Of a stretch of 64,000 nucleotides of DNA, positions 28,530 through 30,454 are shown one piece after another (position 1 is the first letter of the stretch; each line of letters starts with the position of its first letter). Where the stretch lies: contig JBCBQC010000031.1 of NCBI GenBank assembly GCA_039820405.1, forward strand, positions 511-64,510, written 5' to 3'. A model generated the notes under the pieces. That model worked only from the letters and a program-made list of their open reading frames with translations, did no database searches and was not told the origin of the DNA. The position numbers were made by a program, and so were the translations under genes. Origin of the DNA: Bacteroidota bacterium. Its GTDB lineage: Bacteria; Bacteroidota; Bacteroidia; Chitinophagales; Saprospiraceae.

Positions 28530-30296
28530 CTATGAGCCGTTTTTAGGGCCCTGTGGCGGCGGGGTGGTAGCCAGGTCAACCCATTCGGCCCACCTGAGGC
28601 CTCCGTCCAGTTGGTGGGTACTAAATTCCAGAAAAACCAACCGTTGTGGCCGCTGTTGTCCCCCTTTTTCTGGTTCGAGGGCGTGTAAGATCATGGGGTG
28701 GAACACGTGGATTCCGCCCTCGGGGACGGTACAAACCTGGGGAATGGAGTTTTGACTGATGGTAGCGATGCCCTCGGCTTGGTGGCGTAGGCGGTGGGAA
28801 CCCGGGAGGACTTGGAGGGCGCCGTGGCCCGTATCGCTGGGGTCGAGGTGGATGCGGAGGCAAAAACGGCCAAAGGCGATGGGATCGGGCGGGCAAACTT
28901 CAAAGCCATCCGCCGTCTCGAACCAGTCGCGGTAGCCCCGAACGGCCTTTTGCTGTGCCACCTTGATGCGTTGGTGTTGCCGCCACTGAGTGTCCCCCGC
29001 GATGCGTTTCCCTCGCTCGTAATAAATGGCCCGGACGCAGTGGGCCCCCGGCGCAATCGTTTCGACGATTTTTTGCAGGTTGGGAGTCCAAAGTAGGGTC
29101 GGGAGCTGTGGAAGTTGCTCGAACAGTGCGGGGAGCGTTGTGGCCTCGATGGACCGTTCGTCCCGGTAAGTCTCGATCAATTTCCGAATTTTTTGTACCT
29201 CCCGCCGGGAGTAGACTTTCCGCAGGACGTAGCTGCCCCGAAATTCCAAACTTTTATGCAGGCGGCGGAGGCTTTTTTCGTTGAGCTCGTTATCATAATG
29301 CTCGGCGGCGTCCCTCAACCTTTGCTGGATGGATCGACGCAAGCGCTCCGGGGCGAGCACGGTGACCCCTTCCCCAAAGGATAGGATCTCCTTTTCCAAT
29401 TCAAAATTGTGACGTACCCGTAGGGCGAGGAGGATGCCGTAATAATCGCGGCCCACCTCTTCCTGGCTCCAGTGGAGGGGTTTGGTGAGCAAGTAAGGGG
29501 CCTGCCGGTGTTGCACGCGGAGCAGCACCTCCTGGATTTTGAGTCCGCCGTTGACGGTGACGCCGATGTTGTGTTTAAAATGCTCGGCGGGGGAGAAGTG
29601 GGGACTGGACTCGAAGGGGGCGGTACTGGGCTGGAGGTCCTGCATCCGGTCGAGGGCCAGGTTGATGACCGCCGCGCGGTCGGGGCGCTTGCCGATCAGG
29701 AACCAGCGGTTTTTGTATTCCTTGAGTAGGTAGGGGGAAAAGTCGAAGTGCTGGGCCTGGCGGGCTTTAAAGGATTGGTATTGGATGTGGAGGACCCGCT
29801 TATTGAGGATGGCCTGGTAGAGGGCGTCGAGGTATTCGAGCCCACGGAGGTTGTCGTTTTTTTCAAAGTCGATGACCGGTCCCTGTTGCTCCTTCTGGGA
29901 ATGGACGTGGTCTTCGAGCTTTTGCACCATGCCCCCCAATTCCCGAAAGTGCGAAAAGCCCCGGAACTGTTTGAGGAATTCGACCACCTCGGTCAGCTTG
30001 TGGAGGTCCTGATCGGTGAGGGGAATATTGGTGATGCTGTAATCGGGATCGGCGTAGGTGTAGTACTTGCGGTCCCGGACCACGATGGGGGCACGGTAGC
30101 CCAGTTTGTCGCTGCGCATCATTTGGATATCGCTCTGTACCGTTCGCCGGCTCACCCCCTTTTCGATACCTTCGTATTCGTACAAAGCCTCGGAGCAGGC
30201 CTCGATCAAGTCTTCCAAGGTCCAGTTGCGGTAGCGGTTTTGCAAACACTGGTCGATGGTTTTGTAGCGGATGAGGGCATTGCGATTGACCGGCAT
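28530..30296 (-). CDS. HTH-WYL transcriptional regulator fused to a PhyH-type Fe(II)/2-oxoglutarate dioxygenase domain
   Basis: The N-terminus MPVNRNALIRYKTIDQCLQNRY is a winged helix. The WYL core is NRWFLIG...NLALDRM. The C-terminal 230 aa carry the PhyH signature IHLDPSDTGHGALQVLPGSH plus a distal His. I placed the start at the MPVNRN ATG (30296). The longest ORF would start at 30380. Confidence 0.6.
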   Translation of the reverse strand: MPVNRNALIRYKTIDQCLQNRYRNWTLEDLIEACSEALYEYEGIEKGVSRRTVQSDIQMMRSDKLGYRAPIVVRDRKYYTYADPDYSITNIPLTDQDLHKLTEVVEFLKQFRGFSHFRELGGMVQKLEDHVHSQKEQQGPVIDFEKNDNLRGLEYLDALYQAILNKRVLHIQYQSFKARQAQHFDFSPYLLKEYKNRWFLIGKRPDRAAVINLALDRMQDLQPSTAPFESSPHFSPAEHFKHNIGVTVNGGLKIQEVLLRVQHRQAPYLLTKPLHWSQEEVGRDYYGILLALRVRHNFELEKEILSFGEGVTVLAPERLRRSIQQRLRDAAEHYDNELNEKSLRRLHKSLEFRGSYVLRKVYSRREVQKIRKLIETYRDERSIEATTLPALFEQLPQLPTLLWTPNLQKIVETIAPGAHCVRAIYYERGKRIAGDTQWRQHQRIKVAQQKAVRGYRDWFETADGFEVCPPDPIAFGRFCLRIHLDPSDTGHGALQVLPGSHRLRHQAEGIATISQNSIPQVCTVPEGGIHVFHPMILHALEPEKGGQQRPQRLVFLEFSTHQLDGGLRWAEWVDLATTPPPQGPKNGS

Positions 30297-30420
30297 AGAA
30301 ATTTTTTTACCAAAATTATCAATTATTTTTTTACTGCGCAAAAACACTGCGCAGTAGCCCTCCATCTTTGTATTGTCCATTGCGACGAGCCATTATATCG
30401 GTCAAAACCAAGCGCTCCAA

Positions 30421-30454
30421 CCGATGCCCGACCGACGGCTAATTCCGGCATCGG
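30421..30454. promoter_or_regulatory. Inverted repeat in the divergent promoter region. It is a candidate operator.
   Basis: CCGATGCC-(18 nt)-GGCATCGG lies between the divergently transcribed WYL-PhyH gene and the TROVE/vWA-like gene. Confidence 0.3.

Follow-up and report, generated by a model that had tools for sequence, protein, structure and literature searches.

A WYL-family regulator with a degenerate PhyH-fold domain and a family-wide candidate operator next to a Bacteroidota RNA-repair operon

Introduction

DriD of Caulobacter crescentus and PafBC of Actinobacteria are WYL-family transcriptional activators whose binding sites lie near the -35 region of their target promoters. Here we analyse a regulator gene of this type on a 64,000-nucleotide stretch of DNA, called the window throughout, from a Saprospiraceae member of the Bacteroidota (assembly GCA_039820405.1, contig JBCBQC010000031.1, positions 511 to 64,510). 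The gene lies divergent from an RNA-repair operon that encodes the RNA ligase RtcB, and its product carries a C-terminal domain with the fold of PhyH-type dioxygenases. We propose, with a probability of about 0.65, that this WYL factor controls the divergent operon through a palindrome at 30333-30355, that its PhyH domain is degenerate in this copy, and that an inverted repeat at 30421-30454 belongs to a leader hairpin. The first 335 amino acids (aa) of the window protein have in common with DriD and PafBC a winged helix-turn-helix (wHTH), a linker, a WYL domain and a WCX domain, and the candidate palindrome near the -35 of its target promoter resembles their sites. Identity to the two proteins is only 16-19%, however, and the window protein has an extra 250-aa C-terminal PhyH-fold domain. 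DriD and PafBC target DNA-damage genes, whereas the predicted targets of the window regulator are RNA-repair genes.

In Proteobacteria, the rsr-yrlBA-rtcBA operon is regulated by RtcR, a sigma54-dependent CARF protein (PMC7790460). The rtcR gene is likewise divergent from a neighbouring operon that combines an Rsr-like gene with Y-RNA-like elements and RtcB, and the Salmonella rsr-yrlBA-rtcBA layout (PMC7790460) resembles the order of the window operon. RtcR is presumably a sensor of RNA damage, as is presumed for the window regulator. The two proteins are nevertheless unrelated: the window protein is without a CARF domain, an AAA+ sigma54 module or a GAFTGA motif and would be a functional analogue only. 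To our knowledge, no regulator has been described for RtcB operons outside Proteobacteria. A literature search, the coverage of which left out the survey of Burroughs and Aravind 2016, retrieved no description of a WYL-PhyH fusion or of a Bacteroidota WYL regulator of RtcB.

The C-terminal domain shares its fold, an N-terminal helical cap, the NG-x-L-x-V-x-PGSH loop and the distal His with PAHX, PHYHD1, FtmOx1, SnoK and KanJ. It differs from these PhyH enzymes in being compact (~240 aa) and fused to a transcription factor, in many changed positions that are otherwise conserved, and in having R and H where they have the two HxD ligands. Standalone Bacteroidota PhyH proteins of ~237 aa (e.g. P0121 of Chitinophaga rhizophila) are clear orthologues with HQD, H and RR intact, encoded by a separate gene unlike the fusion in the window. 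Ada, PutA, BirA and NadR likewise hold enzyme and DNA-binding domains in one polypeptide. They have no homology to the window family, and the enzyme half of the window protein looks inactive; in the WYL-PhyH family as a whole, catalysis may be linked to transcription.

Results

The regulator gene and its start codon

The 616-aa open reading frame (ORF) at 28530-30380 on the minus strand exists as listed, and the original prediction had given the protein as 589-616 aa. The ORF is present, but the real start gives 588 aa. In an alignment of 118 homologues, all begin with MPVNRNAL, which corresponds to Met29 of the 616-aa ORF at position 30296. The NCBI protein (P0001), which is 588 aa long and 100% identical to the window protein, starts at the same Met29. 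Because both the homologue alignment and the NCBI entry begin there, the start was placed at Met29. The regulator gene is therefore assigned to 28530..30296 on the minus strand, encoding 588 aa plus a stop codon, in the order wHTH, helical linker, WYL, WCX and PhyH fold; residue numbers below are those of this 588-aa protein unless stated otherwise. On this comparison, the first 28 codons of the 616-aa ORF are non-coding, and a candidate operator and a promoter fall inside this N-terminal extension.

By its architecture, read from sequence and structure models, the protein classifies as a DriD/PafBC-type WYL transcription factor. The full-length AlphaFold2 (AF2) model had a predicted local distance difference test score (pLDDT) of 85, and its best Foldseek matches in the PDB were full-length DriD and PafBC, followed by PhyH enzymes. 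DriD (expectation value, E, of 2e-14 over ~345 columns) and PafBC (E 1e-11) both match the N-terminal 335 aa, and profile searches of the PDB returned WYL proteins, DriD and PafBC as well. The N-terminal wHTH (~aa 1-90; 30027..30296, minus strand) is assigned from AF2 secondary structure and the Foldseek match to DriD. It is modelled as three helices and a beta wing (H6-20, H28-43, H51-62, E72-75 and E79-82), and the segment is 72-90% identical among homologues; no Pfam HTH family matched the N-terminus of the regulator. The WYL domain (aa 154-222; 29631..29837, minus strand) matches Pfam PF13280 with E 2.1e-15 and 56.9 bits against a cut-off of 21.8, and its signature N-R-W-F is invariant in the homologue alignment. 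The WCX domain (aa 255-331; 29304..29534, minus strand) matches PF25583 with E 2.9e-11 and 44 bits against a cut-off of 23.9.

The fusion of an HTH-WYL regulator to a PhyH-type domain, as originally predicted, is a family trait. A database search yielded more than 118 full-length homologues of ~575 aa with 97% query coverage and 49-68% identity, all from Bacteroidota and including isolate genomes; nearly all of them have precomputed WYL, WCX and PhyH hits. Full-length orthologues are encoded, for example, in the cultivable relatives Flexithrix, Lacinutrix and Limibacter. Since so many homologues share the architecture, the fusion is not a frameshift artefact. The closest relative (P0003, at locus L081) is one uninterrupted fusion gene, and the gene order around it is identical to that of the window. 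About 31 of 80 reference-genome loci encode the fusion, and the rest have a close orthologue that ends after WCX, with 53-63% identity over residues 1-336. Two Chitinophaga loci (L062/L075) encode the short regulator together with a separate 237-aa PhyH orthologue a few kb away. This separate PhyH gene is in an operon with two RlaP genes and is translationally coupled to them (RlaP-RlaP-PhyH). Ortholog comparison, which had been proposed as a check, thus upholds the fusion, and the split form seen in these loci reads as a natural variant and not as a sign of sequencing error. The database annotation of the protein is only 'WYL domain-containing protein'.

A family-wide palindrome between two predicted promoters

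Because the wHTH segment is so highly conserved, the site of the regulator should be common to its homologues. K-mer counting on the upstream regions of related loci identified a palindrome with the consensus ACTRCGCA-N7-TGCGYAGT. The window sequence ACTGCGCA-AAAACAC-TGCGCAGT at 30333..30355 (no strand assigned) matches this consensus perfectly, lies ~57 nt upstream of the regulator start codon and is the sole good match within the 64-kb window. With at most 2 mismatches, the palindrome occurs within 420 nt upstream of the regulator start in 53/80 loci, mostly at -56 to -60, and all 59 aligned sites have its cores CGCA and TGCG unchanged. Of 80 palindrome sites in the 1.31 Mb searched, 54 fell within upstream windows totalling 33.6 kb. 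The others are mostly inside RNA-repair clusters; in locus L001, for example, copies precede the starts of RtcB and Ro60 by 41 and 53 nt, respectively. Extra copies are located between RtcB and DUF2828 in loci L091, L093 and L094, and others precede DUF2828 genes with no regulator beside them.

The Bacteroides promoter consensus, reportedly defined by Bayley et al. 2000, comprises a -33 TTTG and a -7 TAnnTTTG. A predicted -7 element of the regulator's own promoter, TAATTTTG (30311..30318, minus strand), matches this consensus, and a TTTG in the palindrome spacer is positioned 20 nt upstream of it. On the operon side, CTTTG(TAT) stands ~11 nt from the palindrome in 51-56 of the 59 aligned sites (CAAAG on the opposite strand). 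In the window, this corresponds to CATCTTTG (30363..30370, plus strand), a predicted -7-like element of the divergent operon promoter, from which the operon transcription start site (TSS) is estimated to be near 30376, ~6 nt past CTTTG. The TSS of the regulator is predicted ~7 nt past TAATTTTG. We infer from this arrangement that the palindrome is a family-wide candidate operator at ~-35 of two back-to-back predicted promoters. Such a position at ~-35 of both promoters fits autoregulation together with control of the operon.

The divergent RNA-repair operon

The first gene of the operon (30491..32065, plus strand) encodes a protein with DUF2828 and DUF7788, assigned by Pfam, whose vWA half is Ro60-like by hhalign. 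The alignment to the Ro60 family covers the vWA part only (probability 90.6%), and Pfam gave no TROVE match for the DUF2828/DUF7788 protein of the window. The earlier label 'Rsr-like' is therefore apt as far as the vWA half aligns to Ro60 and Y-RNA-like elements follow downstream, but it does not extend to the TROVE domain. The DUF2828 gene is followed by a gap of 830 nt (32066-32896), in which two bulged hairpins in tandem and a YrlA match under the Rfam threshold were found. The tandem elements (32084-32160 and 32232-32312, together 32084..32312, plus strand) are each ~75 nt long, lie ~150 nt apart and correspond to the direct repeat D1/D7/D8. The same long stem with bulges (GGCC..GAUUAC / GUAAUC..GGCC) is predicted for both copies (z-scores -2.2 and -2.9), and they are candidate small Y-like RNAs by analogy with YrlB. 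The match to the YrlA-like Y RNA tRNA-like module (Rfam RF02553; 32532..32596, plus strand) scored 35.3 bits where the gathering score is 69, with E between 6e-5 and 7.5e-6. It is the sole Rfam hit in the operon and lies between the DUF2828 and SPFH genes.

The SPFH/Band 7 protein (32897..33997, plus strand) matches Pfam Band_7 with E 1.5e-32. RtcB (34049..35209, plus strand) matches Pfam RtcB with E 7e-104 and is encoded downstream in the operon on the same strand. Among the related loci, genes divergent from the regulator encode RtcB in 43, SPFH in 26, at the same position as in the window, and true Ro60 (TROVE plus vWA) in 14. Further genes at this divergent position encode RlaP nucleotidyltransferases, PrfH, and a T4-type RNA ligase with PNKP (Rnl/PNKP). 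RlaP extends damaged 3' ends of RNA by nucleotide addition (PMC12776372).

The regulator was originally proposed to take the place of RtcR at this locus, and the analysis agrees with that proposal. The gene is divergent from the RtcB operon, and GAFTGA, the sigma54-activator signature, was found in no reading frame of the window or of more than 100 related loci. Searches of Pfam and NCBIfam with the window protein gave no match to CARF or to the sigma54-interacting AAA+ domain.

The PhyH-fold domain has lost its canonical metal ligands in the window

AF2 modelled the C-terminal 254 aa as a PhyH-type double-stranded beta-helix with a pLDDT of 92.6. Foldseek matched the domain to FtmOx1, SnoK and KanJ in the PDB (E ~1e-10, template modelling (TM) scores of 0.54-0.64, 240-270 columns). 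The predicted 2-oxoglutarate (2OG) oxygenase fold of the PhyH type is thus supported by both methods, and with Pfam they delimit a PhyH-fold domain at aa 335-575 (28572..29294, minus strand) with a degenerate active site. Of the features listed originally, the loop GALQVLPGSH is found at aa 492-501, and the distal His is H538. The description of the dioxygenase as 'complete' was not borne out, as the Pfam PhyH match (PF05721) is marginal, at 23.0 bits where the cut-off is 22, and reaches only model positions 126-211 of 213, the C-terminal half (residues 505-577 of the 616-aa ORF).

The HxD motif also failed to appear at the expected place. Across 119 aligned fusion proteins (the window protein and 118 homologues), the basis of all active-site column counts given here, the metal-binding W-H-Q-D (aa 438-441) reads W-R-Q-H in the window. 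The DNA has the codons CGG-CAA-CAC (28974..28982, minus strand) for R439-Q440-H441 in place of H-Q-D, whereas the His and the Asp are each present in 118/118 homologues. The sole HxD of the window domain, H483-L-D485, sits in a conserved strand 'RIHLDD..NG' and is most likely the motif that was originally meant. In a domain profile alignment, the family H-Q-D corresponds to H156/D158 of PHYHD1 and LLHAS...RR corresponds to H264/R275 of human PAHX, residues that we take to be the ligands in these two enzymes. Owing to this alignment with PAHX and PHYHD1, the family H-Q-D, and not H483-L-D485, is assigned to the metal triad.

Other near-invariant positions are changed in the window protein as well, namely K428R, N433A, W434G, N445K, N491H, S542P, R551Q and H555F. 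For the 2OG-binding Arg, the family has RR (116/118 each), and the window has Q551-R552 after a 2-residue insertion, which leaves the position equivalent to PAHX R275 ambiguous. Among columns of the domain with at least 90% conservation, the window protein differs at 16/54 and its sister P0003 at 2/54. A relative-rate test of the window protein against P0003 with 117 outgroups counted 48 window-specific and 13 P0003-specific changes in the PhyH domain (p = 8e-6). The corresponding numbers were 9 and 3 for the wHTH and linker and 13 and 5 for WYL-WCX, neither of which is significant. The sequence WRQHQR is shared with two further assemblies (P0002 and L101), three assemblies in all. A frameshift in the HxD region was considered and discarded, as the two other reading frames contain nothing like NWYVTWHQD. 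The ratio of nonsynonymous to synonymous substitution rates (dN/dS) between the window and L101 is ~1 in both halves of the protein, a value drawn from few differences and an assembly of 1.7x coverage.

Taken on these residue changes, the PhyH domain of the window is most likely a pseudo-enzyme that has lost the canonical Fe(II) ligands and is now either a relic without catalysis or a module that serves structure or ligand binding. The domain family, judged by the same alignment columns, appears catalytically intact in essentially all other members.

On the ENA contig of L101 (L101:299-1999), where the regulator is 96% identical, a population variant of the gene lacks 21 aa (LEPEKGGQQRPQRLVFLEFST) in frame and, with them, the Arg-bearing strand of the PhyH fold. 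The deletion may be an artefact, given an assembly coverage of ~1.7x and noisy differences among related low-coverage contigs.

PhyH, fused or standalone, co-occurs with RlaP: RlaP is found in 10/28 loci with PhyH versus 1/35 without it (Fisher p = 0.0015, kinship ignored). This co-occurrence and the conserved catalytic residues of the fusions hint at a role in RNA repair or signalling. The contexts of standalone PhyH orthologues in three genomes are unrelated to RNA repair; the PhyH-RlaP link is drawn from regulator-centred loci only.

A hairpin in the predicted operon leader

The inverted repeat originally put forward as the operator, CCGATGCC-N18-GGCATCGG, was found exactly at 30421-30454. 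It is unique in the window. By our own estimate, a perfect 8-bp inverted repeat with a spacer of at most 30 nt is expected ~0.1 times per 190-nt region, making the repeat on its own suggestive but not compelling. Its role as the operator was not borne out, because it is absent from 83/84 loci compared while the other palindrome is shared by the family. The repeat lies ~45 nt downstream of the predicted operon TSS, in a leader of ~115 nt, and both minimum free energy and centroid folds enclose it in a hairpin at 30410..30461 (plus strand) of the predicted operon 5' leader. The fold of the leader has a z-score of -1.5.

The repeat is conserved in locus L081, the closest relative, with changes in the loop only. 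When further DUF2828-type loci were examined for covariation, only the population of the window and L081 were found to carry the hairpin. Intergenic DNA at 30297-30490 is 81-84% identical to L081:2771-2970, compared with 57-78% for the flanking coding DNA; this higher conservation implies that the leader is functional in some way. We consider it more likely, from these sequence comparisons and predicted folds, that the 30421-30454 repeat is a lineage-specific leader RNA hairpin than that it is an operator. The hairpin was also assessed as an intrinsic terminator and rejected: only a weak 5-bp sub-stem at 30443-30456 was seen, no more than expected by chance, and we do not claim an attenuator. 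No known RNA family was detected by Rfam in 30200-30500 at either gathering or E-value thresholds.

Between the operator candidate and the hairpin, the block TTTTGACCGATATAATGGCTCGTCG is perfectly conserved between the window and L081. In aligned intergenic regions inspected by eye, loci L079, L054, L017, L026 and L094 have strong, unrelated hairpins directly upstream of the first RNA-repair gene, and the leader of L094 folds with -32.9 kcal/mol. The divergent operons may commonly have structured leaders.

Discussion

In the explanation that we favour, a DriD/PafBC-type WYL factor would control the divergent operon with its Ro-like DUF2828 protein, Y-like RNAs, SPFH protein and RtcB. A dimer of the regulator would bind the palindrome ACTGCGCA-N7-TGCGCAGT, which at ~-35 overlaps the predicted -33 TTTG of the regulator promoter and precedes the -7-like CTTTG of the operon by ~11 nt. 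If DriD and PafBC are a guide, the ligand sensed by the WYL domain is probably damaged nucleic acid, and its binding would turn the operon on. Several points weigh against parts of this proposal. WYL proteins of the BrxR/CapW type are repressors, and the sequence alone allows an activator or a repressor. The T-rich spacer may be a feature of the operator or of DNA bending rather than a -33 element, and its orientation is kept even at sites that have no regulator gene on that side. As to the PhyH domain, H441, H538 and R552 remain, and it may keep a non-canonical metal or 2OG site; it is still an intact and confidently folding ORF, and so is not simply decaying. The 30421-30454 repeat is kept in the nearest relative with no informative covariation, so that it may be a protein site there.

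The remaining His and Arg residues invite the reading that the window protein is an active bifunctional 'trigger enzyme' too, with a non-canonical metal site (e.g. H441 and H538 plus another residue), a substrate tied to RNA damage and an activity that modulates DNA binding. The domain is full length and modelled with high confidence (pLDDT 92.6), it keeps the distal His, the NG-loop region and one Arg of the RR pair, and the family retains H-Q-D, H and RR in 115-118/118 members, which argues that catalysis matters in the context of the fusion; the enrichment of RlaP RNA-repair genes at PhyH loci (10/28 versus 1/35) points the same way. We nonetheless regard an active enzyme in the window as unlikely. 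In the triad, Arg replaces the first His and His replaces the Asp, and we know of no described PhyH enzyme that works with R/H in place of H/D. Changes extend to 16/54 highly conserved columns, compared with 2 for the sister lineage, Pfam no longer detects the N-terminal half of the domain, and the L101 variant, from a low-coverage assembly, has even dropped the Arg-bearing strand through its 21-aa in-frame deletion. It is scarcely credible that faulty assembly or a spurious frameshift gave rise to the fusion or to the R-Q-H substitution. The window does come from a metagenome-assembled genome, and related low-coverage contigs differ noisily; against this, the fusion recurs in more than 118 homologues including isolate genomes, the motif is in no other frame, the identical WRQHQR is present in three assemblies, and H to R (CAY to CGG) requires two base changes, with D to H a further one.

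Two other rivals concern what the regulator binds and controls. The inverted repeat CCGATGCC-N18-GGCATCGG could be a protein operator, either for the regulator or for a second factor, given that its 8-bp arms are perfect and unique in the window, that the closest relative keeps them while the loop varies, and that the intergenic region is more conserved than its flanking genes. This is very unlikely in our view: the repeat is absent from 83/84 loci compared despite a wHTH of 72-90% identity, and other DUF2828 loci have ACTRCGCA-N7-TGCGYAGT instead. It also lies ~45 nt past the predicted TSS, where it forms an RNA hairpin of 15 bp or more with flanking pairing, and we judge its 34-bp span and 18-bp spacer unusually long for a single wHTH dimer. 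Still less probable is that the regulator mainly controls a type XIII retron or another defence module and not the RNA-repair operon. The retron, composed of a reverse transcriptase (RT), a SWIM protein and a WGR-HEAT protein, is within 5 kb, WYL models of PADLOC match the regulator, and a related RT is also near locus L020. The retron is, however, found in only 2 of ~80 loci, RNA-repair genes are the constant neighbours, and the regulator and the RNA-repair operon have the only palindrome copy of the window between them. Control of the RNA-repair operon through the 30333-30355 palindrome thus stays our preferred reading.

A wider idea, which we hold to be doubtful though worth stating, is that HTH-WYL-WCX-PhyH proteins form a new 'trigger-enzyme' class of regulators. 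Their 2OG/Fe(II) oxygenase would act on, or be gated by, an RNA-damage signal or the O2/Fe/2OG status, and this enzyme, fused or standalone, would join RlaP in an as yet undescribed oxidative step of RNA repair. If true, oxidative chemistry would be tied to an RNA-repair regulon defined by ACTRCGCA-N7-TGCGYAGT, and the window copy would be a natural catalytic-dead variant in which regulation is uncoupled from catalysis. For the family as a whole, the data point to the WYL factor, with or without PhyH, as the Bacteroidota counterpart of RtcR. The conserved layout of operator and promoters makes a Bacteroidota RNA-repair regulon testable and predictable from the motif, and the operator and the regulon are the most useful results of this analysis. 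The widespread and catalytically conserved PhyH fusion is a lead to a possible link of 2OG oxygenases with RNA repair or sensing, for which the degenerate copy of the window is the least informative member in terms of enzymology but a useful natural control.

Neighbouring genes

The type XIII retron (35294-42403, minus strand) looks complete, is convergent with rtcB and falls within 5 kb. It consists of the RT (35294-36838, minus strand; PADLOC RT_XIII, 626 bits), the SWIM protein (37380-39140, minus strand; SWIM_XIII, 783 bits) and the WGR plus HEAT-repeat protein (39029-42403, minus strand). The scan of the 64-kb window gave no copy of the regulator palindrome near the retron. On the other side, downstream of the WYL regulator, 23301-24788 (plus strand) encodes a regulator with HTH_3 and Peptidase_M78 (IrrE-like). 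An 1171-aa protein is encoded at 24864-28379 (minus strand); its homologue in L081 has hits to Peptidase_M43 and to a type IX secretion system (T9SS) sorting tail and also adjoins the regulator there.

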